Assembly (NCBI GenBank): GCA_001929475.1
Contig: LXFE01000167.1
Span: 55,023-75,022 of the forward strand
Direction of reading: 5' to 3'
Length of the DNA stretch: 20,000 nucleotides
Source of the DNA: Neolecta irregularis DAH-3
Taxonomy: Eukaryota
Positions 239-20,000 of the stretch are shown in pieces (the stretch's first letter is position 1; each line of letters begins with the position of its first letter). The position numbers and the translations under genes are program-made. The notes under the pieces were generated by a model that was given only the letters and a program-made list of their open reading frames with translations, had not been told where the DNA came from and did not search any database.

Positions 239-1981
239 TCAAAGAGCACGCCCACCTAAAATTTCCACTTTTAGCTTTGCCATAGCTTCTTTGTAAAGTG
301 TCGGACACCTTTCGTCAATTTTGCCATCTGCCCATTCTACCTCGTTACTTCTTCCAATGCCATTGACGATAGACTGCTCGACCCATTTCTCCTGACCTTT
401 TTCTACCAAGGTCAAAGCCAACCCATCTTTTCCAGCTCGAGCAGTCCTTCCAACACGATGCACATACTGTCCGATATCTCGGGGCAGGTCGTAGTTGATC
501 ACGCGTTGTACTTGTAAATCGATTCCTCGTGCCATTAAATCGGTGCATATTAAAACATGAATTGAACCGCCAGAAAATTTTGATAGAAGCGGTTTTCGTG
601 ATGCATTATCAGAGGAATACAGCCCTGACTGAATATCGCAATATGAAAGCAACTTGTGGAGGCGGGAGGCTGTATCGGTCGACTTTGCAAATACCAGAAC
701 AGATGGCTGATTTTGTAGAAGGCTAAACAGATGTAGGGGTTTTGCATCCGTTGACACTCTGTAAAACTTTTCGCATAAGGTAGATGGAAGATACGATATT
801 AGGTCGTCATCTTTCATTCTGACATCTGAGATTATCATCCTCGGGAATGAGAGTTTCAAGCCCGTTAAGCTTTCAAGATTTCGAGTTTGAGTGGCAGAAA
901 ATATCATTTTTCTACATTTTAAAGAATGTGGGTTGGAGAGAATAGTATCATCAAATAGAGTCAAAAATGATTCAGATACCACTGAGTTTGATGAGAGCGA
1001 TGGCGAGTGGATTGCCGAGATGACGATGGCGACCCAATTTTGAAATCGTGAGTGTAGCAAACGATCTGCTTCGTCAATGATTAAGTACTGGAGATGCTGA
1101 AGCGAGAAGAAAGGAGTCGATTCAATATGGGAAACAAGGCGTCCTGGCGTTGTGATGACTATATCGAGACTTCAGATCAGCCAAGGATACTGATGATGTA
1201 AAAAACCCAGGGAAAGACTCTTGCTCCGTGACAAAAGACTTAATTCCAAAAGTGCCAACCTAAAACATTAACTGCAACTACAAAAGGAGATAATACAAGT
1301 AATCCACTTCCTCCAGCGAAAAACTCCATTACTCGATGAATTTGCATAACGAGTTCCTTCGTAGGAACCAGAATCAAAGCACGTATCCTGGGGACAGTCC
1401 GACTGGACAACGCCTAATGTCATCAGCAACTGTGTTTCTGTAAGAAGTCTCGCTTCAATAACAGGAATCCCATAACTCAGTGTTTTACCACTACCTGTTG
1501 GTGCACAAATACACAAATCTCCTGGCTCTTTCAGCAAATTCCACACTTTTGCCTGCACTGCGAATGCAAATTCCAGCTTTTCTTGCCTCAGCCTTGATAA
1601 TAACCGGGACGAGATAGCAAGATCAGAAAAAAGTATGGGTTCATTTGCATCTAGAATAATCGGATGGCGAAGCCACTCTGGCAGACCTGCCGAGCTATCA
1701 AGTTTTACGAATGCAGCTTGAGATGACTCGAGAGATAAATCTGGAAACGCTTCAAGATCACCGCTCGGTGCTGTCTCCTGTTCAGCCTCAATTGTTTTGG
1801 GTTCCTTGGCAATTTTCTCTTGCTGAGATGAATGAAATTTCGCGGTTTGAGCATCTGAAAGCCCATTGTCGTCAACTTCTACCTCTTGGTCTCTATTTCC
1901 ATCGCCATAGTCCTTTCGCTTCCTCTTTTGATTCAGTTTGTGCGGAATCTTCTTGTCTTTGGTTTTCACTGATGCAGCCAT
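239..1981 (-). CDS. DBP6: DEAD-box RNA helicase Dbp6/DDX51 (60S biogenesis), 4 exons; introns 1414-1453 (GC-AG), 1260-1296, 1170-1206
   Basis: The spliced translation gives the Q-motif (FAVQ), motif I APTGSGKT, Ia PTKEL, Ib TPGRL, DEAD, SAT, ARGID and [16 protein letters not shown] near the N-terminus and GDLCICAPTGSGKTLSY..P are typical of Dbp6. Confidence 0.88.
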
Positions 1982-2062
1982 CTATTCTTCTTCACAAAGA
2001 AGCGTAAATGAGATGGATGCTATTGGCTTTTCATGACATCCCCAACCGACATCTGGTTTCCC

Positions 2063-2074
2063 TCACGTGATTGG
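2063..2074. promoter_or_regulatory. Palindromic E-box TCACGTGA followed by ATTGG (inverted CCAAT) in the 150-bp divergent DBP6/SDA1 promoter
   Basis: The sequence tcacgtgattgg lies near the middle of the region between the ATGs at 1981(-) and 2132(+). It matches the bHLH (Cbf1-like) consensus. Function is inferred. Confidence 0.45.
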
Positions 2075-2131
2075 TAACTCGCCTCTAAAATATTTCCTAT
2101 CGGCCAAGGACCTTGCCATTGATTCGACGGA

Positions 2132-4454
2132 ATGGTCAAACGTTCTCGTGCAGCGTTGTTGCCGACGAACCTACCGCATCTACAGAACCTCACAAAGCGA
2201 GATCCACTATCATATACTGAAGAATTTCGTCAACAATGGAATCACTACTTAGCGACTCTAGATGTTTTCCTTGCAAACCCCACAGAAAACGCCGATAGTT
2301 TCGCTGAAGTCGTAGGCTTCATCGCACAGGTAGCTACTTGCTTTCCTGTGGAAACATCAGACTTTCCTCATGATCTTGTACGTTTGCTCAAAACACACCA
2401 TGAAATGCTACTACCAGAACTGCGCGAAAAACTTGTCAAATCTCTCGTAATGCTGCGAAATAAAGGGGTGATAGATTCCCTCACTCTCTTGCAGTCACTT
2501 TTCCCTCTTTTAATCGCTACCCATTCAAAGACACTTCGTCAGCATCTCTATGCGACTATCTCCTCAGATATCCGAACTTCAAACTCGAAGGCCAAAAACC
2601 ATAAACTCAACGGAACCATCCAGAGCATGTTGTTTAATCTTCTCGCAGAGCAAATTCCCTCTGGGGTTTGGGCGACAAAGCTTGTCAGGGAGATGTGGAG
2701 GAGAAATATCTGGAATGATTCCCGAACTGTGGAAATTATGAAAGAAGCTTCGCTGCATTCTAATACAAGGATTGTGGTGGGTGGGGTGCGATTCTTTTTG
2801 GGACATGATGAGGAGGAAAGCGATGAAGAAGAAGATTCTATCGACGTTAAACGGCTTATCCATCAGGCTGGCATCAATAAGAAAAATCACGGTCGCGATA
2901 GTAAAATTTCCAAAGCAATTGCTACTGTCAAAAAAGGACCACCCTTACTCTTCCTTTGCTAACAATGCAGCGTGAGAAGAAGAAAAATAAAGGCGATCTA
3001 TTCAACTTCTCTGCCTTACACATATTAAACAATCCTCAAGGATTTGCAGAGTCTTTATTCACAAAGCACCTATCGAAGTCTACAAAACTGTCATTAGAAC
3101 ATAGACTTCTTGTTCTACAACTTCTATCACGATTAATCGGCGTTCACAAACTTACCATATTAGGTGTATATTCGTATCTACAAAAGTAAGCACTCATAGC
3201 AGATGTTAACTTATATCAATAGATATCTCACTCCTCACCAACGAGATGTCACTCATTTTCTTGCTTGCGTAGCTCAGGCGAGCCACGAATTTATTCCACC
3301 TGATGTTATTAGTCCTGTTATTAGAAAAATTGCGGATGAATTTGTCACAGGCGGTGTTGCTAGCGAAGTCGTCTGTGCTGGGTTTGCTGATTTTCAAATT
3401 CACAATTGACAGAAGCCTGAATGCAATTAGAGAGATTTGTGCCCGTTCGCCTTTGTCCCTTTCCGAAGATATGTTGCAGGATCTCACTGAATACAAGTCT
3501 TCGAAGGATAAAGGTGTGATGATGGCTTCGCGAAGCTTAATTGGGCTCTATCGAACGGTTGCTCCGGAAATGCTCAAGCGGAGAGACCGAGGGAAAATAG
3601 TTAGCATGGGAATGGAAAATAGTGCCGCAAATTGGAGGTTTGGGGATGAGCGTGGCGTTCAAAGGGGTATAGATGGATTGGAACTTCTCGAGACAGAAGG
3701 TATTGAAGCTGAAATCGATGACGAAAAAGGTAAGAACATTGTTTCCTATTAATTCTAACTGTAGGATGGGAAAAGTGGAATGTTGAAAAAGATGCAAGCG
3801 ATAGCGATGGGTCAAGCGGCTGGATCAATGTCGGAAGTGACAACATTGATATCAATATTTCGGACAGTGACGATGAAACACAAAATGCTGAAGGCGATCA
3901 AGATACCGAGAGCAATGTGAAGCTAACAGGAACTGAAGGGCTTCACAGTATCGCAACAACGAGGGTATCTGGTCCATCCTTGATAGGCTAATCATAGATA
4001 CTCACACCTGCCGATTTTGCAAGACTGTCTGAGCTCCGTGAAAAGTCTGCCGTCGATAGGCAGTTAGGAAAGCCTTCCAAGTAATTTTCTTTCGTATTTA
4101 TTACTTATTCATCAGGCGTCTACCGGAATTAGAATTTGTGGATAACACAGCTATTGAGGGCCCTCGAAAGAAAGTCAGAGCGACATATGCTGAGCGAATG
4201 CAGAGTGTACAAGAAGGGCGAGAAGGCCGGGAGAAGTTCGGTAGTCGAAAAGGAAATCGAGAAGAGAACGGCAGGAGCACCACTAATCGACAAAAAGCAT
4301 TGTTTCCCCATTCTTAGTCTGCTAACGGTGTCAGGCCCGTAAGAAGAACTTCATGATGATTGTGCACAAGAAGGAAGTCAAAGGCAAAGTAAAGGTATCG
4401 CTTATGGATAAACAAAAAGCCCTGCGAGATCATAAAGTGAAGAAGTCGAAATAG
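2132..4454 (+). CDS. SDA1: Sda1 (SDAD1) pre-60S maturation/export factor, 8 exons; introns ~2936(or 2927)-2970, 3186-3222, 3382-3415, 3730-3764, 3965-3997, 4081-4115, 4297-4334 (GC-AG)
   Basis: The spliced protein contains the N-terminal NLPHLQNLTKRDPLSYTEEF, then NFSALHILNNPQGFAE, YLTPHQRDVT, LNAIREIC.R.P, ILTPADF and STTNRQKARKKNFMM, all characteristic of Sda1. Stop TAG at 4452-4454. Confidence 0.93.
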
Positions 4455-4544
4455 ACGACAGTTATTATTATACATGCACAAAAATGAAACCACCAGTAGA
4501 CTCTTGAAATTTGTCTATAGCTTTATTTTGCTTTCGGCGTTTTA

Positions 4545-6926
4545 TCAACGCCTTAACGACTTTTTCTGAGGTTTCTTTTTAGAATCCGTTCGATCACATG
4601 TTGTCTTCTTGTAGCTTCGTTTCTCCACAGCAAGCATCTTCTTCCGTTTCTTGCTGCTCAATTTTTCTTTCGACTTCGTAGGACCATTTACTTTCGCTAA
4701 GGATTAGTCCACGAAAAGTAAGATGTGAGACCATCGGAGACTTTCTTATCGTTTGCTTTTAAAAACCATGTCCTTGCAGGGCGACTCCTTATCTCGGCTT
4801 CATGTTTGACGAAATTCTCACCCTTCTGAAGCTCCATTTCGGCCTGGCAAAGCTATATGTTGGTTAATTTCTTGTAGAGTTTAGAATACAGCCTTCTCTT
4901 CTTTCTCTTCCACTAAAGTTGCGTCCACATCTTCCGCCAACTTTGCTAAACGGACAGCCCATTTTTCCAGTCCCGTTGCATCCAGAGTTCGACTTCTGAC
5001 ATCGCCCTTTTGAGCGTCGGCGCTCTTGACTGCAAGTTTAACAATTTTACGGTCAGCTTCCCCAGCAAGGGTAACCGCGCAACCATTTCGTCCAGCTCGA
5101 GCAGTTCGACCCACCCTATGGAGATACATATCGTGTGACTGCGGTGCCTCGTAGTTAATGACAACATCAATCCCTTTGATATCGAGACCACGCGATGCAA
5201 GATCGGTGGCGAGCAAAAAGTCAACTCTCCCATCTCGGAACTGCTCTAATGCAGTAACTCGTTGTTCTTGGGATAGAGAACCGTGGAGATCGGCAGCCTT
5301 AAACCCCAAAAGTCCAAAAATAATGCGCATACGGTGAGCCATAACTTTGGATCTGAAAAAGACAAGAACTCTATTCTTGTAGATAGATGAAGCAAGCAAC
5401 AAAAGCATGGCCGAACGCAAGTGTTCTTTCTGCGGTCTTATTCGAATGAATTCCTGGGTTAAAGAGGAGGCAACACTATGCTTGGGATCGACGAGCAGAC
5501 GGACAGGCTTATTGAGAGAAAGTCGAATAAGGCTGTCAATCTGCCAGGATTAGTACGCGACTATGAACACCCGCTGGTACATCTTCTGTCATTGTCGCAG
5601 AGAATAACATTGTCTGCCGCGACTTGGGACAAAGTCGTATGATTTCGTCAAGTTCTTTGGCAAAACCATCCTCAAGCATCCTTTAGACTTGAGTAAATTC
5701 TTGAGAAGATTACATACCGATCGGCTTCGTCTATGACCATGATTTCGATATTTTCGATCGTAAAGCCGGTCGAGTTGCGAGCATGATCAATAAATCGTCC
5801 AGGAGTGGCAATAACAACGTCTGGCTTTTTCCGCAAGTCAAGCTCCTGAGTCTTTAGAGACAGCCCGCCCAAAATGTCAGTTTCTACGGGAAACTTGGTA
5901 ACAAACCCACACAAAGGCAGAAAGTCACATCGGTGTAAGTGGCTAGACGAATAGCTACACTGTGGCATTGCATAGCCAACTCTCGGGTTGGGCACATGAT
6001 CAATACCCTTGAAGTGGGTACTTTCTTGGGCCGGTATAAGAGCCGTTCAAGTATGGGGACAATGAAAGCTGCAGTTTTCCCAGAACCTGTGACTGCACCA
6101 CCCACAACATCTTTCCCAAGAAGTGCAATAGGTATAGTCTTCTGCTGAATTACCGTCGGTGTAGAGAAACCAACAGAGGATAGACCCTTCAAGATTGGTC
6201 TCGATAAATTCATATTGTTGAAGGATGTAACCGTGACATTGCTATCTTCGGATGGACCTGCAAAGTACTCCTGTCTTCGCGCGGTTTCTTCTGCAGTTTC
6301 AGGTTCTGATCCTGAAGCAATGTCATCAGGATGTTCGAAGGGAACTGCTATTGACCCATCAGAGTCCGAGTTACGATCTTCGTCGATATCTTCTTCCGAA
6401 ATTTCATCAGGTTCATCCCTAGTTTTGACGCCCATTCCAAACCCGTCTGCCGCTAAGCCATTAGATTAATTCAAATATTGTTCATGCCGATATCTTCATC
6501 ATCAAGAGCAAAGTTTCCAAATGCCTCGCTCTCATCTTCCCATTCATATGATATCTCATCACTAACTTCTGGACCGTGTTCTTCAACAGATTCTATGAGG
6601 AGATGTGTTCCTTGAGCTGATCGATGTCGCTTAATGATGTCCTCGATGTTGATATCTTTTTTTCTCTTGGTCTTCATTGCATCCTTTGCCTTATCAAATC
6701 CCCACTCCTGCATAGTCCCTAGATCCTGTCTTCCATATCCCGCAGCATCGAAGTCAAAATCTAGGTCGATATCTGCACATTTTCTCTTCTTGGTGGCATT
6801 TTCCTCAGGGAGCACTTCATGGCTCGAGTCCTCGCTTGCAGATAGCTCGGACTCTTCGTCGTCCTCTATAGTCAAAACAAAGTCATCAGCCTTTGCGCGC
6901 AGTTTTCTGGACGTATTTGTAGACAT
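4545..6926 (-). CDS. DRS1: DEAD-box RNA helicase Drs1/DDX27 (60S biogenesis), 7 exons; introns 6453-6487 (GC-AG), 5869-5906 (apparent GT-GG), 5681-5717, 5541-5580, 4853-4889, 4697-4731
   Basis: Acidic N-terminus with DFVLTI, then [77 protein letters not shown] and the C-terminal EI.SRP.RTWF. The exact 3' end is less certain. Confidence 0.92.
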
Positions 6927-7072
6927 TAATGGAAACTAGCATGAATTTTATTTTTGTTTCAAGTCTCGGTTTGGTCACGCCGAATTGTCTACAACATCGA
7001 ACTTTGGCAGAGAAGGAAACACTCATAGCTTCAGGCTAACAAAGCCTTCCGATCATCCTCGGATTCTTATTC

Positions 7073-10000
7073 ATGGAGAAATTCCAACTGCTCCCTTCGG
7101 ATATCGAGTCTAAGCTGCTCGAGCTAGAGTACGATTTTCAGCAAGGCGACATAACCGAGCAAGGCTACAAAAAAGTACACGTATCTGTACAAGCTTTCGT
7201 ACTCACATACAGCGGAAATCCGCTCTTCTTTTATCTGTAAAGGAGGACCCCGTAATTGCGGCTGGTGAGGGACAAACCAATTTTTCAAATGACAGCAACA
7301 GTACGAGCACGGTATTTCAACATCTAATTGCTTCTCATTGCTGACTGCCTCTAGGATTTCGCCCAAGCCTCTCCTAATAACCGCCCAGTATCCCATCTGT
7401 CTCTGGAGATGCCTGATTATCGTTTCAACCCTAGCACCTTTGATCTTCGTTTGTAAATCTTCCTATCAAAGGTCTTACGAGAAAGAATTTGATGACAATG
7501 ACTTGACCTATAATCGCATTCATAACACCTATACTGAACGCGCAAGAACTGAAGACTACGAAGAGATCGACGACGATAACAGTAATTCTCGTTATATAGC
7601 TAGCATACTGAAATTTTTATAGCAGTGGCCTACCAGCGTAAAATATTCGAAGGCTCTCCTCACAAAGGCATTCTTAATATCCTTGAACCACGAGACATCC
7701 CATTCTCAATCTTCGATCCTCATAATGAAAATATCCCCTTGTCGAAATTTGACAACCTAGCTGCGATATTGCGTTATAGGGGTCAAACAATACCCAAGAA
7801 ACCTGCTTTTCTAGTTCTAGATTCAAAAGGAAAAGAGGTTCACACAATGACATGGGAAAAGATTGCATTGCGTGCAGAAAAGGTTGGTCACGTTATTCGG
7901 GAAAAGAGCGGCCTATATCGAGGTGATCGTGTGGCCCTAGTTTATCGCGATAGTGAAGTCGTTGAGTTTGTCGTTGCCCTTCTTGGTTGCTTCATTGCGG
8001 GAGTAGTAGCGGTCCCAGTCAATAAACCAGAAGACTACGAGGAGCTGAACTTTATTCTTACCTCTACACAAGCACACTTGGCTCTGACAACTGACAACAA
8101 CTTGAAGGCTTTCCAACGGGGATTGAGTGCTGCCAAAATACCATGGCCCAGAGGAGTCGAGTGGTGGAAAACAAACGATTTTGGCAGTTTCCATCCTAAG
8201 AAGAAGGAAGAGCTTCCTGTATTTTATCGAAAAGTAGCTTTTCGCTAATACCAAGGCACTACAAGCTCCTGAACTTGCATACATTGAATTTTCAAGATCT
8301 CCTACGGGCGAACTACGGGGTGTTGTGATATCTCATCGGACTATCTTGCACGCTATGTCTAGCTTATTGGCTGTAATATTTTCTGTTCCAGGACAGAAAC
8401 AAGACTCGCCAGCAGAACATATGCGTGATAAACACGAAAACCCTGTTATTGGTACTGGGAGCGGAGAAGTACTAGTGACGTATCTCGATCCCCGCCAAAG
8501 TGTCGGAATTCTCTTTTCAGTACTTATGACTGTTTATGGTGGATACACGACAGTATGGACAAAACCTGGAGCTGTGGCAACTCCAGGTCTTTTTGCCAAT
8601 ATTGTTACGCGATATAAAGGTTTGAGCCATCAATTCGCATAGTCTCGTTTGACTCCAAGCATCCCTTGTTTTGGCTGATTATCCGGGGTTGAAAACAGTG
8701 GCATACAACTACCAGAACGATCCATTAACCACTCGGAATTTCTCTAAGAAGCATCCTGTCGACTTTTCTTCAGTTCGCCTGTGTTTCATCGACTGCCAAA
8801 ATGTAGATCCTGAGTTTCACGAAATCCTTGCCGATCGATATTTTAAGCCGCTCGGAAATCATCGTGCGTGGGACATTGTTGCGCCAATGCTCTGTCTTCC
8901 AGAGCATGGCGGCATGGTTATAACAGTCAGAGATTGGCTCGGGGGCCAAGATCGCATGATGCCGGACGGCCCAGCACTATTAGACGAAGGCGATGGTCTC
9001 ACTGACGTCCTTCTCAATAAAGAAGCTCTCAAGACGAACGAGGTGATTGTCATAGCAACTGGAGCGGAGGCGAAGACAAGAACAGGGGAACCTGGTACTG
9101 TCAGGATCGGCGCTTTTGGCAATCCCCTCGCGGACGCTACTCTCGCTGTTGTAGACCCTGAGATTGGCGTTATTTGTCCTCCACATATGATTGGTGAGAT
9201 ATGGGTACCAAATTTTATTTCAACGACCTTATCGATATAGGTAGATTCACCATCATTAAGCGCTGGATTTTGGGCATTACCAAAACATACATCTGATATA
9301 TTTCATGCGAAACCTCTGACAAGACGCCCGGATGGCGGCACAGAAATATATAGACAAGAGTTCCTACGAACCGGATTTCTGGGCTGTACTATTGAAGGAA
9401 AAGTCTTTGTATTGGGCATGTATGAGGATCGGCTACGCCAAAAGGTTGAATGGGTCGAAGATACCCAAGATATTATCGAATACCGTTATCATTACACCAG
9501 TCATTTGGTCACTACTATCATGAAAAATATAAAAGGCGTTTTTGATTGGTACCAGCACTTCCTTTCTAATATTTAACTCGATTATAGTGGCGCTTTCGAT
9601 ACTTTTGTGAATGAAGAGCATTTGCCAGTTATAATCATCGAAAGTCCTGTGGCTTCGACTACACCCATCACGCCATCATCTCCTCCAAAGCCACTCGATG
9701 TCACTCTCCTATCAAAATTAGCAGAACGAACAATCGAAATTTTACTTGACGAGCATCATGTCCGTGTTTATTGCGTTCTCCTTACTGCGCCCAATACTTT
9801 GCCGCGGGTCTTCAAAAATGGGCGAAAAGAAATTGGAAATATGCTCTCACGTAAAGAATTCGAAGCTGGAGCACTCCCTTGTGTATATATCAAATTCGCT
9901 GTCGAAAGGGCTGTGTTGAATTTGCCTATTGGTGAGGATCCAGTTGGTGGAGTTTGGAGCCCAGAGGCAACGTACCACCGACAGGAATCGCTCGCTTTCG

Positions 10001-12220
10001 AGGAACGCCAGTATAGTGGAGTTGATCAACGTGATATTGTTATTGACGAAAGAACATCACTGCAGTTGAACACATTTGAGAGTATTGTTGATCTGCTCCA
10101 ATGGAGAGTTTCTCGTCAAACGGAAGAACTTTCCTACTGCACCATTGACAGTCGAGGCAAAGAAGGCAAAGGTACGACTTGGAAGAAATTGGATATGAAA
10201 ATTGCGGCCGTTGCCCACTACCTCAAAACGAAGGCCAATATATTCTCTGGGGAGCATGCTGTGCTGATGTATACGCACTCAGAAGACTTCGTCTATGCAA
10301 TACATGCATGCTTTTGTTTGGGTATTACAGCAATTCCAATAGCACCCGTCGATCCTAACCGTCTTTCCGAGGACGTCCCTGCTCTGCTTAGTGTTATACG
10401 CGACTATAGCATCAAGGCTATATTGGTGAATGCGGATATTGAGCATTTAATCAAGGGAAAAGCAATTTCTCAACACCTGAAACAGTCTGTTGTTGCGGCT
10501 CGTCTCACCTTGCCTCCTATATATAATACATCTAAACCACCGAAACAGATTAAAGGCTGCAAAGAACTGGGAATGACGATCCGCCATGAATGGGTCCTGC
10601 CATCGTATCCAGCGTTGATTTGGGCTTATTGGACACCGGACCAACGAAGAATAGCAGTACAACTCGGGCATGATACAATCTTATCATTGTGTAAAGTACA
10701 AAAGGAAACCTGTCAGATGGTCAGTTCGCGACCTCTTCTTGGTTGTGTACGAAGTACGAGTGGCATTGGGTTTCTCCATACTTGCTTAATGGGTATTTAC
10801 GTTGGTACAGAGTTGCTGAGGAATTTGAGAAATGACATATACAGGAACCTCGACATACTTGGTTTCACCTGTGGATTATGCGGCAAACCCAGCCCTACTT
10901 TTGAATTGTATGGCTCGGTACAAAACCAAGGACACATACGCTACTCCCCAGATGCTGGACCATGCAATCCAGACAACTCCAGTCAAAGGAATCTCATTGC
11001 ATGAAATAAAAAACCTCATGATTTCATTTGAAGGAAGACCTCGAACCAATATGTGTAGGGGGTCTCTACAGTTTTGTGCTGACATATATAGTTCAACTTG
11101 TCAGAACGCACTTTTCGTCCGCATATCTAGACTACACGGCCATCAATACAACGTATAGTCATGTCCTAAATCCTATGATCGCAACTCGATCTTATATGTG
11201 CATCGAACCTATTGAATTATATCTGTCCGCACGAGCACTTCGTCGCGGGGTTATAGAAGTCACCAGTCCAGATGAAGATCGGTTTGGTTTATTAGTTCAC
11301 GACTCTGGCATGGTATGATTGACCAAGACTGATTAGTTTGATTCAATGCATAGGTTCCTGTGTCTACCCAGGTAGCTATTGTCAATCCTGGGACATGCTG
11401 TCTCTGTCGTGTAGGCGAGTTCGGTGAGATATGGGTTGCATCTGATGCTTGTGCAAAAAGCTTTTATGGTTCTCGAGATGCCTTTGATCTCGAGAGATTT
11501 CGAGGTAGATTAGTTGATGGAGATCCACGGATTATCTATGTTCGTACGGGTGATCTCGGTTTTTTGCATAACGTATCGAGACCCATTGGACCAGGGGGCG
11601 CTGTTGTCGATATGCAAACTTTATTTGTGTTAGGCAGTATCGGCGAAACGTTTGAGGTAAATGGCCTCAACCACTTCCCCGTCGATATTGAACATACCAT
11701 TGAACGATCTCATAAGAATATTGTAGGGGGTGGAAGGTTAGTACCTCCATCTTAACCCGCAATCTCACGTTCAAGTGCTGTTTTCCAGGCTGGGGGAAGC
11801 GTTGTTGTCCTAGTTGAAGTGGTGAAGGCCGAGCATTTGGCTTCTCTAGTTCCTGTAATTGTCAATGCGATACTCGACGAACACCAACTGATCGTCGATA
11901 CTGTTGCATTTGTTGCTTTGGGTGAATTTCCCAGGTCTCGACTTGGCGAAAAACAACGAGGCAAGATATTAGCGAATTGGGTGTCAAGGAGATTGTATGT
12001 CTCAATGTTTTTCCTAGCTGTCTACTCACAAGATAGATACCCGGTTGCAAGATATGCTGTTCGAGAGCTAGAGCGATCGGACAACAGTGGGCCTGAAAGT
12101 GCCACAGATATAACTCCAAACCAAGAGGATCAAAAATTATTTCCAGAGGGATACAAGGCCGTCCCGGATGGTTCAGAACCGTTCGTACAGGGTCTTGGTA
12201 TTGATGCGTTCATTCGTTAA
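7073..12220 (+). CDS. DIP2/Cmr2/Cps1-family protein: N-terminal DMAP1-binding domain plus two fatty acyl-AMP-ligase-like (AMP-binding) domains; about 14 exons; introns 7175-7212, 7312-7354, 7449-7485, 7582-7622, 8219-8255, 8620-8659, 9205-9240, 9549-9587, 10805-10844, 11055-11091, 11313-11353, 11737-11775, 11995-12036
   Basis: The N-terminus LLELEYDFQQGDITEQGYKKRK is DMAP1-binding-like. The A-domain motif variants are AYIEFSRSPTGELRGV, GEIWVDSPS, FLRTG.LG, then GEIWV and YVRTGDLGFL in the second domain, and PRSRLGEKQRGKI at the C-terminus. The exons in 7213-7622 are the least certain. Confidence 0.88.
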
Positions 12221-12322
12221 CGACCCACGAGAAACTGGGCAATGTATAGGTGTTTTTTTCCTCGCTCTTTTGAGGCGTTCGGTTGTAGTGAAGGTTAGAT
12301 ATATTGTCATTTAGAGCGATAT

Positions 12323-13067
12323 TTAAAGCACGGTACTATTTTCCACTACCCATTGCATTCCTTTGGCAAGATTTTTGCCGGTGACTGCACTACATGGCAG
12401 TATATGGTGATTATGTGTTTTTATATTGCGTAGATCGAGTCTCTGTGCACGGGTCATCTTGATGAAATCTCGAAATAGCATACATTTTGTATTTCACTGC
12501 ATTGCATACCGCCGGCAATGTCTGTCTTGTTACAAAGTACGAGAAGACCGGCTCCCATGAGGCGCTGCAAGGTTTCAGCATCCATATATTAATACGAGAA
12601 ATACTTCCTCCTGAAGCAGATTATGAAGCTCGTGTCTGCAATCTTCAATGCGAAGACGGTCTGTAGAATCAACGACCCACACTACAACATCTGTTTTTTC
12701 AAAGTAATTCCTCCAATAACCACGTAGAGATTTCTGGCCGCCTACATCCCCTTGGATAAGTTCACAGGCGACAACAGAACACAATACAAATATTGAGTTT
12801 GTAACCCTGAAATTCAAGGCTTTTGATATTGAACCCGAGTGTTGGACTTTTCAAATAAGATTACATGGTTACACATGTATATTTCTCAAACCTGACTGTT
12901 GAAATATCTTCCCCGCTGATCTTTTTCAGGATTGTAGTCTTGCCTATAAAACCGGTAAACTGACCATCGATATAAAGATGAATACCCGCGGAATCAAGCC
13001 CGAGCATTAAGACTCTGAGTTCCTTCTCTTTCAGACGCTGTTTTTTCAAAATTGTATGTAAGCCCAT
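12323..13067 (-). CDS. ARL2: ARF-like small GTPase Arl2/Alp41/Cin4 (tubulin folding), 6 exons
   Basis: The spliced translation is [35 protein letters not shown]...SPTLGFNIK...[21 protein letters not shown]...NKTD...CSAVTGKNL. It has G1-G5 motifs and the Arl2-specific GQKSLR.YWRNYFE. Confidence 0.92.
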
Positions 13068-13138
13068 ATGTTGATGTAGGAGATGTAGATTTTGTCCGAT
13101 CAACCATCCTCACCTCCACCCAAAATTGTAACCACAGC

Positions 13139-13436
13139 ATGGAAAGAGCAGGCGCCAAAGGTCTCTCAAGACCAGTCCCTTTTGCTATGGTCTATATTTG
13201 TGCAGGTTCGTGTTCCTTGAAGGCACAGATGTCTGACCAGAGACTGCCGGGCCAAAATATCTATTCAGTCAGGAGAATCTGTTCGGTGCAGGGATTGCGG
13301 TCATCGTGTAATGTATGTTTTCAACTGGTAACAGGCAGTTTTGGTCTAATTTATAGGTACAAACAGCGGACAAAACGAGTGGGTGAGTACTTTTCCTGCT
13401 ATTGAACTCATTACAGTTCAATTTATGGCCCGCTAA
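13139..13436 (+). CDS. RPC10: RNA polymerases I/II/III shared subunit RPABC4 (Rpc10/Rpb12), about 60 aa, 4 exons; introns 13206-13242, 13313-13356, 13383-13416
   Basis: The spliced protein is MERAGAKGLSRPVPFAMVYICADCRAKISIQSGESVRCRDCGHRVMYKQRTKRVVQFMAR. It has the YICxxC...RCxxCGHR zinc ribbon and the KxRTKR.VQFxAR C-terminus. The ORF track does not recover it as such. Confidence 0.93.
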
Positions 13437-13707
13437 ATTCCCGATCATAGAAGTGCGTTGTGTTGGCCCAAGTCTATGTGACCATGAGCCGGGGATCTGG
13501 GGCTAGGGCTTTATGAATACATTTGTAGGTATAACCACTTGGAGTGATCGTAAGTAGTTTAGTATCCTACCGTGCACAACTGACTTGAACTCCAAAATGC
13601 AGATTTTTGTAAAATTTAGCAATATTGGCCTTATGCAAATTTATTTCTATTTCCATCATACAAAACGTGACGCTAGGATATACTGATCGCAAATCGTGCA
13701 ATCTCAG

Positions 13708-14657
13708 ATGGTTGGTATAAATCAACCTTCCAACCAAATCAAGTATGCATATTCCATCCGAATTAGTCATTCTTAATGACAGGCTTACAAATGTTTCCAT
13801 TGTACGACTTCGAAAGGGTGGGAAACGGTTCGAGGCTGCCTGTTATAGGAATAAAGTATTGGAATGGCGGTCAGGCGTGTATGCTATATCTCGAGACTGT
13901 GGCGCTCACTGGTACCAGAGAGTCTGATATTGATGAAGTATTGCAGATACACAGTGTCTTCATCAACGTGGGTAAAGGGCAGGTTGCCTCACAAGAAGAT
14001 CTCAGAAAATGTTTTGGTTCAGATGACATTGAAAAGATTCTTCTTGAAGTAAGTTTAACAATACCGTGTGCTGAATGCTCACGATCAAGATCCTCAAGAA
14101 AGGCGAACTGCAAGTTGGCGAGAAGGAAAGATCACATCAAATGGAGAATCTACAAAAGGATATTATTCTGACAATATCCTCTAAATGCGTTGACCCCCGT
14201 ACGAAGCGGCCTTATACAGTCGGAATCATCGAAAAGGCGATTGGCGAAATTGGATTTAGCATAAATATTGGAAAAAGTGCAAAGTCTCAAGCATGTTGTT
14301 GAGTCATTCTGGTCCTAATTCCCAGGCTTTAGAAGCGATCAAGCAACTCCAAGAAAAGGCCATTCTCCCTATAACACGCGCCAGAATGAGGGTTCGTATA
14401 ATCTGTGATATGAAGGAAGGCAAACGATTACACGAGAGATTGGTAGCCCTCGCGGCTGATATCGAAAGTGAGGATTGGAGTAATTCCTACGAAATGGTAC
14501 ATTTGATACAGTTTGATACTGAGCCCTGTAGATAGCTTCAATTGATCCTGGAAACTACCGAGCCATTGGAGATCTTCTCAGGGAGGAGAGTCACGGTAGG
14601 GGTCAGGTGGAAGTTTTGGACCTGCGAGATGCTGTCGACGGGGATGAAGTCTTTTGA
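13708..14657 (+). CDS. SDO1: Ribosome maturation protein Sdo1/SBDS, 6 exons; introns 13743-13782, 13879-13918, 14049-14089, 14291-14325 (GC-AG), 14497-14531
   Basis: The spliced protein contains [47 protein letters not shown]...[35 protein letters not shown] and IDPG.YR, which are SBDS family signatures. Confidence 0.95.
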
Positions 14658-15047
14658 GTAGAAAATTGAAGCAGACTGTGAATACGATATTGGAGTAATA
14701 TAAATATTCATCAAAAGTCAAGGGAAAATCGATAGTTGTATCCGGAACCTCTTCCATCCTTCTCAGTATTGATGTCTGCTGCGCCCATTATTATATTTCT
14801 GCATGAGGGAGTGGAATGAAGTAGATCAATTTTCTCAGATCTCACCTCATCTTTGCTCCATTTACTATTCTCGGGAACTGTGGTAAAGAGCTGAAGAACG
14901 ACAACCATTCTTCAAGGCCTTGTTGCTTTAGAAACAAGTTTTATATCTTGCAAGATTCATTGAACCTTTTGATTACGGAGAGTAAGCTCAACGCCAAAAG
15001 TATAATAAGACCAGGTAAACCCAAGTGTTGTAACTCCGTACAGGGAC

Positions 15048-15071
15048 ATACCTAGCCTGAAGGCTAGGTAT
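15048..15071. repeat. Perfect inverted repeat (10-bp stem, TGAA loop), followed by a 14-nt AT palindrome at 15070-15083
   Basis: ATACCTAGCC-TGAA-GGCTAGGTAT, then ATAATATATATTAT. Confidence 0.8.
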
Positions 15072-15499
15072 AATATATATTATGCCACCAACGCCTGGTT
15101 AGTGTATTGGTTGGGTTATCCTTACACTTTCAGCGAGATATCATCCTCTGAACATTGATGAGTTTAGAGGTCAATTTCTCAAGTGTCCTGAATAATACAT
15201 CTTGTTAAATTAGGATCTTAGCTTGAAAACAACGGTAAGCCAAGTGTGTTTCAAAGGAATATAGGCTATTGTACTATAATGAATATGTAAGAAAATAATC
15301 ACGCTATAGGCATCAATAATGGATCAAATCCGTAAATAACCCTATATTATCATAATTAGAACGGTAAAAAAGAGCTTCGCTAGAGAAGGGTTAACTAGAT
15401 TGAAAATTCCGACAAGAGATGTTTTTAGATGACACGAGTATGCTATCGCTCTAGAATTTGTATTGAAAAACTAGAATTTCTTGAAAACAATTGAATACT

Positions 15500-17689
15500 C
15501 TAGTCGCTGTCTGAAGATTCCGAGTCGCTTGGGTCCTCTTCGCTTTCGCCAGAGCTGGAATCATCGTCAGAGCTTTCCTCCGTCTTTCTAGATTTTCTGA
15601 CTGGTTGGCCTTTCATGTGATTTAATTGGCCGGCTATCGAATCTAGGGTGAGAAACATACTCCAAGGAACGAACCCTCATCAGGCTCAGAAATCTCATCA
15701 TCTGGGACGATCTCTTGCAGTTTGCTAGCTTCTTCGATATGAAGCTGCACGTTCAAGATATGATCAGTGCCGAGATAACTGTCACTTTTGATATAACCCT
15801 GGAAAGTATACACACCAGGACTTTGGGGAACTTGAAACTGAAGGCTCATAGTCTCGACTTGAGAACCAACACTGGGAGCAAGGGTTGGCGGTACAATTAG
15901 TCTATCCTGCTTGGCGTCGCTGATGAAAATCCAATAACGGGGAATATGTTGCTTGGGATAAAGTGGAGCATGTGCTTGCTCGTTCTTGTCTGGTTTTTTA
16001 CTCTTTGACAATATTTGATGTGTTTCCGCGTTTTCCGCGTCCTTGTCAACTAAATCCGATTCAGCAACAGGTATCTTTTGTCCGGGAACAAGAGTTCGTG
16101 CGCGAACGATAAACTGGACAATGGCGCCAGGTGCAACAATATTGTCACCGGGGACTTTATATAAGCAAAAGTCAGAATGGGCATACCTTTGAAGTAAGAG
16201 TTGACGACATCAAGTAGTGGGATTTGTTTTGCAACGCTCATTGCCTCATTGTAGGCCTTGTCATCTAAATCCTCGAGTAAGAATCTCCGTTCAGAGTCTT
16301 CAAGTGACATCAAATCATCCACAGTCTGAATATCCGGCCGCCGACCGTGTATTTTGTCAACAATGTCTCTGGTGATGCCCGTGATTTGCAAGAGCGGGGA
16401 GCCACCGATAGGAATTGCTTGAATGATACTCTGGGATAGATTCATGGCGGTCAAGATTGGTTGCAAGTATCCGAATGCAAGGGCAATAGTTAAAAGACCT
16501 CGCTGGAGTCGGAGCGCATTGTCCAATAGAACATGTTGATCTAACCATTAAAAGAATTGAAGACATGCATACCCTTTTCCAAATCCTTTGATTGCAGTTG
16601 CACTCTGTTCAGATGGGCAGAGAGTAAAGCGAGCGACTTTTTAGCCCATGCTTGATCTTTTCCTTTGACGTTAAGGGAACTGTCTGCCCGATGAGCCAAA
16701 GTCTTGACCTGCAGCTCTGAGAGACCGTTGTTCCTGTACGCGACTCTATATTCATCGCTCAAAGCAATCATGTCCGTTGCCGTGCCCGGGTCAATATGAT
16801 CGCTGAAATTGCGAAAAAAAGTTTCGGCAGATCTGATTCGAATACCGTCTTTTGTAAGTTGTTTACTGCCATTCCACCATCGTCCCTAGCGGTCAACATA
16901 TGGTTGAGGGAAAAACATACAACGTAATAAGGAAGCAAAACACCAATCAACAATGCATATAGTCCCAAAACATAAGCACTGTTTTGGCCTTCAATAATCC
17001 ATTTTGGAAGAGCAATGCCGACGCTAAAGTCTTGTTTGCCGTCAGGATGACCGAATTCTTCAAAATTCCTTCGAATGTCATCGTCAGTTAGACTGCAGGT
17101 TAACACAGTCTATTTGGCAGACGCACGCTTTATAAGCTTTAGTCAGCTCTACAAAATGGGCCACGAGGTCTTCCATGGTTTGATTTTCCAAGGGCTTGGC
17201 TTTGTCCGGGTGGCTATTTCAGTGGATGTGCGCAAGAGGACGGTACAATTTCAGACTTGCACGTTTGTAATGAGAGCGGATTTGTTGCGGGGTAGCGGAC
17301 TGTAGTGAAAACAAGGACTAGTAAAGAGATACCAGAGAAATGCCGAGAATTTTGTAGGGATCCCAAAAGATGCTTTCGATTTTGACGGTGGCGATGAGGT
17401 ATGCCATGTACCCAAACAAAGCCCAACCCGCGGTCAGGAGAACCATTCTAGGGGTGAGAAGCATTGCGGGTGGGCGATACTTTTTAGTGAGTTTGAATGA
17501 AGTGGCGGCGAGTTTCAGGGAGGAGTATTTCTTGGAGCAGGTGGAACAGGAGCATGTAGGGGGATTGAGATGGGAGCCTGCGGGGGGCACGAACAGCCTG
17601 TAGGTAGCAGGAAACAACAGGAGGGCCAAAAAGGTGAGGATAAAGTAGGGAAAGAACTGGGCGTTCTCGTCATAGTTGTACTGGGACAT
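15500..17689 (-). CDS. SEC63: Sec63 ER translocon J-domain protein, 9 exons (8 GT-AG introns of about 32-35 nt)
   Basis: N-terminus MSQYNYDENAQFFPYFILT plus TM segments, then WDPYKILGI, J-domain KF|HPDK, TKAYKALTD...FGHPDGKQ.FSVGIALP, the Sec63/Brl domain with KSDSYLGTD, and an acidic C-terminal tail. Stop TAG at 15502-15500. Confidence 0.95.
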
Positions 17690-17731
17690 TGTGGTGGAGG
17701 TTGAAATAAGAGAACCAATTTTAATTTTCTA

Positions 17732-19214
17732 TCAAAGAGCCTTGGTACGAGGAAAGCGTGCGCTGTAGATAGCATCCAACAGGGGACTAGCAGCAACCTG
17801 TCGCCCACCAAACCAACGACCGTTTAATCCCAAGATTGCATTTTCACCAGAGGAGATCTTTTCAAATTTTACATAAATTTCGCCGCCTTCGTCGACGTGG
17901 ATGTGGACTACTTTGCCGTATTTTTCTGTACATTCGGCGCGAACGTCGTCTTCGAGTTCGCGGAGGGAGTCGCTTGTTTCCCTGAATGTTAGCGGGCGCG
18001 ACCGGGGGCAGGTACTCGAGAGGATCAAACATGTTTTTGAGCAGGATGCAGCGGGAAGCGACGGTTGTTTCGATCTTGGGTTTGGTGTCCTTGTTTGCTC
18101 TGTGGACGGCCATGGGGCCTGCAGCCTGGCTGGTGGGGGCCGGTTCGCGGGCGAGTTTTTTCATGAGAGCTTCGCGGGAGATGTTTTGAAAGGAGACGCC
18201 TCCTGTTTCCGAGTCGTCGAGATTGGACTTGTCTTTTGAGCCGGTGTGGCGAGCCGAGTCTCTGCGGTCGTCGTAGTCGTCTCTGGCGCGGTCTGCGGGG
18301 GTGTCGTGGTCGCGGTCTTCGAATCTAGCAAGTTGAGCAGATGTTGATTCATTCGTAAACTTATCGCCTCCAAGACCCACTCTGATGGGGCGACCGGCGA
18401 GCTCGGTGCCGTTGAGTTTCTCGAGGGCTTCGCGGGCGGAGGAGGGGTCTTTAAACTGGACGTAGCCGTGGCCTCTGCTGCGGGTGGTGTCTGGTTCGGT
18501 CTGCAGGCAGACGCTCTCGAGCTCGCCAAAGGCCTCAAACACAGTCTTGAGGTCGTCTTCGGTGAGGGAGAAGTGGATGTTTCCGATGTAGAGCCGGTGG
18601 AAGGGGGCGTCGCCGGCGCTTTTCCCGAGCAGTTCGAGGCGGGCCTGTCTGTTCTTTTCTGCTTCAGTGAGCTGTGCGATGACTGGGATGCCCAGCAGAC
18701 GCTGGCCGGTCATGTTTATAGCCTTCTTGACCGAGTCTTCGTGTCTAAACTCGACATAGCCGACGCTGGCGGTCAGCGGCGGTGCATCCGCGCACACATA
18801 CCCTTTGGAGCGCCCCGAGACTCTGTCCTTTACGATCTGGGCGTCTCGCACGGGGCCGGCCTTGTCGAAGAAGGCGATCAGTTCCTTTGTGCGCAGCCGT
18901 GCGGCGAGCTGCTGCACAAAGACTGTTCTGCGGTCGCGCTCGTCTTCGGTGGGCGGCGGACTCGGGGGCCTTGACTGTCAGCGGCGCAGCAGGAGCGCGA
19001 ACCTGGACGGTTCTCTGCGGCGGTAGTCTCTGCGGTCGTCGTAGCGCCTGCGGGTGGGATCGTCGTGGCGGGGGCGATCTCTGCTGCGCGAGCGGCGCCG
19101 GTCTCTGCTGCGGGAACGGCGCCGGTCTCTGCTGCAGGCGCGGGCGGGAGGACCTCTGGGTGAGCCTTTTTTGAAAGGGGCTTCTACGAGGGCTTCCGTG
19201 TCGATGGCAGACAT
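17732..19214 (-). CDS. RBM39/CAPER-like (S. pombe Rsd1) splicing factor: RS domain, two RRMs and a C-terminal UHM; introns 18970-19002, 18766-18801, 17982-18015
   Basis: RS/RD-rich N-terminus, then EDERDRRTVFVQQLAARLRT, RNP1 SKG|VGYVEF, TEAEKNR, HRLYIGNIHFSLTE, SRCILLKNMFDP, EDDVRAEC..KYG and the UHM LNGRWFGGR. Confidence 0.9.
19074..19135 (-). repeat. About 2.5 copies of a 24-nt coding repeat (SRDRRRSR) in the RS domain
   Basis: Minus strand AGCAGAGACCGGCGCCGTTCCCGC / AGCAGAGACCGGCGCCGCTCGCGC / AGCAGAGATCGC. Confidence 0.7.
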
Positions 19215-19299
19215 CAGGGAGGCGGAGGGCAGCGGCGGCTGGGGGGGGTATGGGCAAAGGCCCTTAATTATTATAGAGCTATGTACCTAATTACACAGG

Positions 19300-20000
19300 C
19301 TAGCCCGACTGGGACGCGGCGACGTAGGCGTTGAGCGCATCGCGGGCGGCGCCGTCGCAGATGCTTGCGCGGGCGAGGGCGGCGGCGGTCTTCCAGCAGT
19401 CGGTGCGCCCGGCGGCGACCAGCAGCGCCGCCGCGTTGATGAGCACAAAGTCGAGCAGCGCGCCCTGCTCGGCGCCGTCGAGCAGCGCCGCGAGCGTCTG
19501 CGCGTTGTGCGCGGGCGAGCCGCCGGCGACCGCAGCCAGCGGGTGCGCGGCGACGCCAAACGCCTGCGGCGACAGCGTGAAGCAGCTCAGCGTGTTGTTG
19601 CGCACCCGGCAGACGTGGGTGGGGCCCGCGGGGGAGATCTAGGGTTAGTTAGGGTTAGGGTTAGGGTTAGGGCACGACCTCATCAAGGCCGTCCGCGCCG
19701 CAGACCACCAGGCCGTCGCGGCCCAGGCGCAGCAGCGCGTCTGCAAACGGGCGCAGCAGGCGCTGCGAGTGCACGCCGAGCACGCAGGCGCGGATGTTTG
19801 CCGGGTTGAGCAGCGGGCCGAGGGCGTTGAAGATCGTGGGGAACGGCAGCTGTCTGCGCAGCGCCGCGATGTCTGCCAGCGCCGGGTAGCAGGCCGGGGC
19901 ATACAGAAACGCAAACGGCGCGGCCAGCATGGCCTCGAGCGCAGCGGGCGACGGCGACAGCGAGCCGCCCAGCGCCGCCAGGATGTCTGCCGAGCCGCTC
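19300..20000 (-). CDS. TRP4: Anthranilate phosphoribosyltransferase (3' part; the gene continues past the window); intron 19639-19678
   Basis: SGSADILAALG, FAFLYAP..YPAL..IAALRRQLPFPTIFNALGPLLNP, GLDE|ISP and DFVLINAAALL are TrpD/Trp4 signatures. Removing 19639-19678 joins ORFs 19667-19930 and 19300-19605 in frame. Confidence 0.93.
19639..19672 (+). repeat. Interstitial telomeric repeat tract CTAGGG-TTAG-(TTAGGG)4 forming the body of the TRP4 intron
   Basis: The + strand reads ctaggg ttag ttaggg ttaggg ttaggg ttaggg. TTAGGG is the ancestral fungal telomere repeat. Confidence 0.92.

Follow-up and report, generated by a model that had tools for sequence, protein, structure and literature searches.

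Introns with non-canonical ends in genes for 60S ribosome assembly of Neolecta irregularis DAH-3: four GC-AG introns and two further candidates

Introduction

GC-AG introns make up about 1% of the introns of animals, plants and fungi, and they usually have a strengthened donor context, AG/GCAAGT (the slash marks the boundary between exon and intron). Introns have also been linked to the control of ribosome production: in Saccharomyces cerevisiae the introns of ribosomal-protein genes, which are canonical GT-AG introns, have been shown experimentally to respond to starvation or stress. Co-regulated ribosome-biogenesis genes are found next to each other in yeast. Here we describe a group of introns with unusual ends in the fungus Neolecta irregularis DAH-3. 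They are found in a stretch of 20,000 nucleotides (nt) from contig LXFE01000167.1 (positions 55,023 to 75,022), which we call the window. Four of them are GC-AG introns, and two others appear to be a GG-AG and a GT-GG intron. All six are part of four genes, DBP6, SDA1, DRS1 and SDO1, which act in the assembly of the 60S ribosomal subunit.

In annotated fungal genomes, the proportion of GC-AG introns given in PMC7072748 is 1.009%. The same source describes GA-AG introns in Eurytemora affinis and Oikopleura dioica, which reach 3.2% of supported junctions in one species. The genome of N. irregularis is reported as a draft of 14.5 Mb with 44% GC, an N50 of 16 kb and 199-fold coverage, obtained from DNA and RNA of wild, uncultured fruiting bodies (PMC5309816). 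The words intron, splice, RNA-seq and transcriptome do not appear in the main text of that paper, which places the annotation method in its Supplementary Methods. PMC8476143 mentions Neolecta once and GC-AG never, and our literature search found no paper joining Neolecta with GC-AG introns.

Results

GC-AG introns in four genes

The window is a compact, intron-rich fungal stretch, for which we have built models of ten genes. These models rest on homologs, on PDB and Pfam coordinates and on manual coordinates. Ab initio models (a longest open reading frame search, a stop-driven chain and two versions of a Viterbi model) mis-called several introns and have been used as guides only. Three long exons correspond to public N. 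irregularis DAH-3 proteins with 100% identity: dbp6, drs1 and a DMAP1-binding/AMP-binding protein, which is DIP2-like. These proteins are encoded by a single contig of 75 kb.

A total of 53 introns is found, all of them with a size of 32–45 nt (median 37). The four 60S genes contain 21 introns (3 in DBP6, 7 in SDA1, 6 in DRS1 and 5 in SDO1), and the six other genes, which form our comparison set, contain 32 (13 in DIP2, 5 in ARL2, 3 in RPC10, 7 in SEC63, 3 in RBM39 and 1 in TRP4). The first-pass annotation of this DNA had reported four GC-AG introns among about 21 in the 60S genes and none among about 33 in the others. Our recount gives the same four out of 21; the absence in the other genes also stands, with a total of 32 instead of 33. 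The coordinates and donor words given for the four introns were correct, and each of them starts with GC and ends with AG on the coding strand (Table 1).

Judging from the coding sequence which they restore and from their signals, all four GC-AG introns are genuine and of the U2 type. In DBP6, the GC model is the only one encoding three residues (VIE) after motif I, which are present in all 59 aligned homologs. The public model instead splices from a GT located 9 nt upstream; its intron has 49 nt (1462..1414), and its protein lacks VIE. In SDA1, the exons on either side of intron 7 continue each other in yeast Sda1: the first reaches residue 725, and the second starts from 726/727. No indel is seen when 35 homologs are aligned, and all GT-AG alternatives which keep the frame are at least 134 nt long. 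The exons which flank SDO1 intron 4 abut at residues 153/154 of human SBDS. Here the frame-keeping GT-AG alternatives have ordinary sizes, 38 and 41 nt; they would delete conserved aligned residues.

The case of DRS1 intron 1 is different, as its junction is found in an acidic, poorly conserved region. Of 119 homologs, 31 have an N-terminal part which is matched by exon 1 (6926..6488, 146 amino acids; E ≤ 1e-3). The only GT-AG alternatives which keep the frame have 110–116 nt, while the longest intron in the window has 45 nt. Exon 1 is dropped from the public DRS1 protein, whose initial methionine is encoded 18 nt after the intron.

The branch motifs of the four introns are located 7–9 nt from the 3' end, as expected for U2-type introns, and their donors do not resemble the U12 consensus when both are compared by eye. 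None of the four lengths (40, 38, 35 and 35 nt) is a multiple of three: as had been proposed, retention of any of these introns would break the reading frame.

Table 1. Non-canonical introns and modelled genes in the 20,000-nt window. Positions are those of the window. In donor sequences, lower case letters correspond to the exon.
Feature	Coordinates	Strand	Description
DBP6 intron 1	1453..1414	-	GC-AG, 40 nt, donor gaa/GCGAGA, branch CTGAT
SDA1 intron 7	4297-4334	+	GC-AG, 38 nt, donor aaa/GCATTG, branch CTAAC
DRS1 intron 1	6487..6453	-	GC-AG, 35 nt, donor tcg/GCATGA, branch CTAAT
SDO1 intron 4	14291-14325	+	GC-AG, 35 nt, donor caa/GCATGT, branch CTAAT
SDA1 intron 1	2936-2970	+	Putative GG-AG, 35 nt, donor aaa/GGACCA, branch CTAAC; from homology
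DRS1 intron 2	5906..5869	-	Putative GT-GG, 38 nt, donor tgg/GTTTGT, branch CTGAC; from homology
DBP6 (DDX51-type DEAD-box helicase)	239..1981	-	3 introns; public dbp6 protein 100% identical
SDA1	2132..4454	+	7 introns; matches yeast Sda1 in PDB and 35 aligned homologs
DRS1 (DDX27-type DEAD-box helicase)	4545..6926	-	6 introns; public drs1 protein 100% identical from M at 6435 onward
SDO1 (SBDS)	13708..14657	+	5 introns; exons colinear with human SBDS across introns 2-5
DIP2-like	7073..12220	+	13 GT-AG introns; comparison set; public protein mapped exactly
ARL2	12323..13067	-	5 GT-AG introns; comparison set; Arf profile, constant offset 2 across three exons
RPC10/RPABC4	13139..13436	+	3 GT-AG introns; comparison set; exon 2 is Zn_ribbon_RPAB4 match, open model
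SEC63	15494..17689	-	7 GT-AG introns; comparison set; open model, junction 5 continuous in Sec63 profile
RBM39-like	17741..19214	-	3 GT-AG introns; comparison set; open model, RRM_1 and RBM39linker matches
TRP4 3' part	19303..20000	-	1 GT-AG intron (19639-19678); comparison set; truncated by window end; Glycos_transf_3 profile

Two further introns with deviant ends

Homology leads us to infer two more non-canonical introns in the same genes. In SDA1 intron 1, a GT donor (GTCAAA at 2927) would give a 44-nt intron (2927-2970), but three residues, VKK, would be deleted. Residues are found in all three of these columns in 34 of 35 homologs, with a hydrophobic-basic-basic pattern which fits VKK. 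Retention of VKK requires the 35-nt intron with a GG donor. Its donor, GGACCA, differs by one substitution from GTACCA, a word found three times in the window.

DRS1 intron 2 is annotated as a GT-AG intron (5928..5894), which removes a segment similar to the homologs and inserts an unrelated one. With a GT-GG intron the protein would have the length of its homologs, and its identity to 60 of them over the segment in dispute comes to 301/530; the annotated model reaches 120/530. The exact boundaries are ambiguous by one base either way, as they are found in a run of G.

Public models have been retrieved for two of the affected genes, DBP6 and DRS1. By our count, they avoid all four of the non-canonical junctions that belong to these two genes. 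Published statistics based on such models would therefore under-count introns of this type.

Donor and branch signals

The first-pass annotation had supposed that the four GC-AG introns should be weak, as they lack the AG/GCAAGT context, a mammalian standard. This context is absent from all four donors, but the supposed weakness is not found: the donors are average for this genome. The canonical GT donors of the window are degenerate beyond GTA. Among 47 of them, A is found at position +3 in 34, T at +4 in 26, G at +5 in 25 and T at +6 in 22. When positions +3 to +6 are compared with GTAAGT/GTATGT, the GC donors have 2, 2, 3 and 4 matches, while the canonical mean is 2.4. The G at +5 is present in three of the four GC donors.

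The main difference is found in the branch site. All six non-canonical introns have a consensus CTRAY motif (R, purine; Y, pyrimidine), with the branch A at 7–9 nt from the 3' end. Within 4–16 nt of the 3' end, this motif is present in 6/6 non-canonical introns and in only 14/47 canonical ones (Fisher 0.0017). This suggests that compensation takes place in the branch site and not in the donor, and it argues for selection for good recognition of these introns.

Distribution of non-canonical introns

With the fungal rate of 1.009% (PMC7072748), the probability of finding at least four GC-AG introns among 53 is 0.002. The simplest account, which these numbers suggest, is a GC-AG rate raised in the whole species. 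Within the window, GC-AG introns are confined to the four 60S genes, as had been noted, and the pattern becomes stronger when the two additional introns are included. All p values for this distribution are nominal: the gene class was defined post hoc, and the scan from which this window comes spans very many windows.

Five of the six non-canonical sites are found within 1.4–6.5 kb (between positions 1414 and 6487), and three of the four genes are adjacent, so function is confounded with position. DBP6, SDA1 and DRS1 are immediate neighbors (DBP6 and SDA1 are divergent, SDA1 and DRS1 convergent), while SDO1 is found 7 kb away.

The value of the comparison set depends on its junctions, and at least 16 of 32 are confirmed by homologs or profiles (9 in DIP2, 5 in ARL2, 1 in TRP4 and 1 in SEC63). 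All 13 annotated introns of DIP2 are GT-AG, and nine of its junctions are located in well-aligned regions without indels when compared with 30 homologs. In ARL2, there is no net indel across introns 1–3 or across introns 4–5 (the two groups were checked against the Arf profile for net colinearity). In TRP4, positions 154/155 of the Glycos_transf_3 profile abut at the junction. The remaining junctions (SEC63, RBM39, RPC10 and the N-terminus of DIP2) are placed by frame, typical intron length and known motifs. Several GT-AG introns are also confirmed within the 60S genes: introns 2, 3 and 5 in SDO1, introns 2, 3 and 5 in SDA1 and introns 3–5 in DRS1. Ascertainment is uneven: only homologs exposed the plausible GT-AG alternatives in DBP6, SDA1 intron 1 and DRS1 intron 2 as wrong, and 16 of the 32 comparison junctions have no such homology check.

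Promoters, relatives and gene neighborhood

We have searched the promoter regions 1982-2131, 6927-7072 and 13437-13707 for two motifs known from yeast. There are no polymerase A and C (PAC) cores in these regions. A single core similar to the ribosomal RNA processing element (RRPE) is present, at 13611, upstream of SDO1. Promoters of the yeast ribosome-biogenesis type are not apparent from these motifs.

A metagenome scan with the SDA1 alignment gave 80 loci. They are all distant, with at best 56% identity to the Neolecta model. The site of intron 7 has no intron in 53 of them, and the flanking motifs are absent in the other 27. None of the 80 loci presents the DBP6-SDA1-DRS1 neighborhood: a DBP6/DRS1-like helicase is found in one of them and DIP2 in two. 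SDA1 adjoins a DIP2-like gene in two unrelated fungal contigs from metagenomes, which hints at an older SDA1-DIP2 neighborhood. The DRS1-DIP2 neighborhood seems to be shared with Saitoella complicata, where the locus tags are consecutive on one contig.

Other features of the window

A segment of 836 bp between the 3' ends of SDO1 and SEC63 (14658-15493) contains no modelled gene; the other spacers there have 51–271 bp. An Rfam scan of the whole window, this segment included, gave no matches.

From 17200 to 20000, GC content climbs smoothly from about 45% to about 72%, over the 5' end of SEC63, RBM39 and TRP4. The genes in this GC-rich end are intact, and their introns are still short, with CTRAY branch motifs. 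We have considered a chimeric contig as the source of this end and rejected it: composition changes gradually, and an intact SEC63 extends across the rise. It is a steep natural gradient in composition rather than an obvious assembly chimera.

The TRP4 intron (19639-19678, minus strand) consists almost wholly of telomere-type CCCTAA repeats, with about four copies. A CTAAC within the repeat occupies the place where the branch motif is expected.

Discussion

How the six introns may be explained

The explanation that we favor, with a probability of roughly 0.55, is that these are genuine U2-type introns, probably spliced constitutively, in a genome whose short introns tolerate deviant ends when the branch site is a consensus one. 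The four GC-AG introns would then belong to a local set of six with deviant ends, together with one GG-AG and one GT-GG intron. The tiny, nearly fixed size of the introns (32–45 nt) and their degenerate donors suggest that each intron may be recognized as a unit, defined by length, branch site and 3' end. A consensus CTRAY most likely offsets the mismatch at donor position +2 or at acceptor position -2, and the six introns are predicted to be spliced efficiently, without being rate-limiting. The link with 60S assembly would be coincidental or regional: the restriction seen in the window is most likely a small-sample pattern, spotted post hoc, and it more probably reflects a raised rate of non-canonical introns in the whole species than a switch at the level of a regulon.

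Several observations weigh against this explanation. The difference between the two sets of genes is considerable: 4/21 against 0/32 for GC-AG introns (one-sided Fisher 0.020) and 6/21 against 0/32 for all non-canonical introns (Fisher 0.0024, for a random spread over the 53 introns). Finding one GC-AG intron in each of the four 60S genes has a probability of 0.0022. Among introns with CTRAY, 6 of 11 are non-canonical in the 60S genes and 0 of 9 elsewhere (about 0.012, computed by hand). DIP2 adjoins the DBP6-SDA1-DRS1 block, but none of its 13 introns is non-canonical, and nine of them are verified. Finally, efficient splicing of the six introns is itself a prediction from their sequence.

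A purely regional cause is an alternative that we regard as unlikely. The history of the DBP6-SDA1-DRS1 block, through weak selection, linkage or a local mutational bias, might have fixed substitutions at splice ends, with SDO1 as an unrelated background case. The position of five of the six sites fits this idea, as the block is contiguous and contains only 16 of the 53 introns. Each change also amounts to one substitution in a form which is common locally: besides GGACCA and GTACCA, already mentioned, there is GCATGT, whose counterpart GTATGT occurs six times. On the other hand, the proteins encoded in the block are intact and conserved, its GC content is ordinary (41–47%) and the substitutions are mixed (T to C, T to G, A to G). 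SDO1 presents the same feature at a distance of 7 kb, while DIP2, beside the block, does not. Finally, that these introns go so closely with strong branch sites speaks for selection and not for decay.

A slightly lower probability corresponds to a control device. Genes for 60S assembly would carry sub-optimal non-canonical introns: when spliceosome capacity or nutrients are low, these introns would be retained, and frameshift and mRNA decay would lead to a joint drop in 60S assembly factors. In a related reading, the 60S-assembly genes would be marked as a class by introns with non-canonical ends (GC or GG donor, GG acceptor) which need a perfect branch site, a splicing-level handle on assembly factors instead of ribosomal proteins; we consider this doubtful. 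The enrichment given above speaks for a control device. At least one non-canonical intron is found in 4 of 4 60S genes and in none of the 6 others (1/210, computed by hand), and the frameshifts expected from retention of the GC-AG introns agree with such a mechanism. It would also be new: judging by titles and abstracts, our literature search found no link between GC-AG introns and ribosome biogenesis. But the introns do not look weak, with a consensus branch in all six and donors which are average or better. The grouping was made post hoc, in a scan of very many windows, and function is confounded with position, as three of the genes are adjacent. The 16 comparison junctions without a homology check might conceal non-canonical sites, just as plausible but wrong GT-AG alternatives were found in DBP6, SDA1 and DRS1. 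The whole proposal derives from sequence data.

An artefact, either wrong bases in the draft assembly, which comes from wild fruiting bodies, or wrong gene models, is very improbable: an N50 of 16 kb and uncultured field material (PMC5309816) would favor errors, and the GG-AG and GT-GG calls are based on homology only, next to GT-AG alternatives which keep the frame, but the reported coverage is 199-fold (PMC5309816), random errors would have to strike six splice dinucleotides, leave about 5,000 codons open and also select introns with consensus branch motifs, and the four GC-AG junctions reproduce the sequence of the homologs exactly.

Significance

GC-AG introns as such are already known. 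The unusual features here are their local density (4/53, or 6/53 with the GG-AG and GT-GG introns), the absence of compensation in the donor and their strict link to a consensus branch motif. Should the raised rate extend to the whole genome, the rules for splice ends would be exceptionally relaxed in this fungus, with systematic effects on its public gene models. In this window, the public DBP6 model lacks three conserved residues, while that of DRS1 lacks exon 1 and has a wrong intron 2. If the restriction to 60S genes were also found in the whole genome, these genes would carry a regulon mark of a new kind.

Comparison with known systems

The arrangement of DBP6, SDA1 and DRS1 as neighbors, with SDO1 at 7 kb, recalls the adjacent ribosome-biogenesis genes of yeast. 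Their promoters are different: the three Neolecta regions have no PAC cores, and the only RRPE-like core is upstream of SDO1. With the introns of the ribosomal-protein genes of S. cerevisiae, the Neolecta introns share the idea of a coupling between ribosome production and splicing. The Neolecta genes code for assembly factors which act on the 60S subunit, the mark would be an end dinucleotide, and it is known from sequence instead of experiment.

The GA-AG introns of Eurytemora affinis and Oikopleura dioica are similar in that their donor is neither GT nor GC; a GG donor and a GG acceptor would be added by Neolecta. The GA-AG introns are supported by RNA-seq and have conserved flanks, while the Neolecta introns come from the sequence of one window.

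Another close system is that of the U2-type GC-AG introns. The Neolecta introns share with them a GC 5' end, an AG 3' end, an ordinary branch motif and a junction which restores conserved coding sequence. They differ in their donors, which lack the AG/GCAAGT context: the last base of the exon is a, a, g and a. Their local rate, 4/53, may be compared with 1.009% in annotated fungi (PMC7072748). In Neolecta, compensation appears at the branch instead: CTRAY is present in 4/4 GC-AG introns, and in 6/6 when the two other deviant introns are included, against 14/47 canonical ones.

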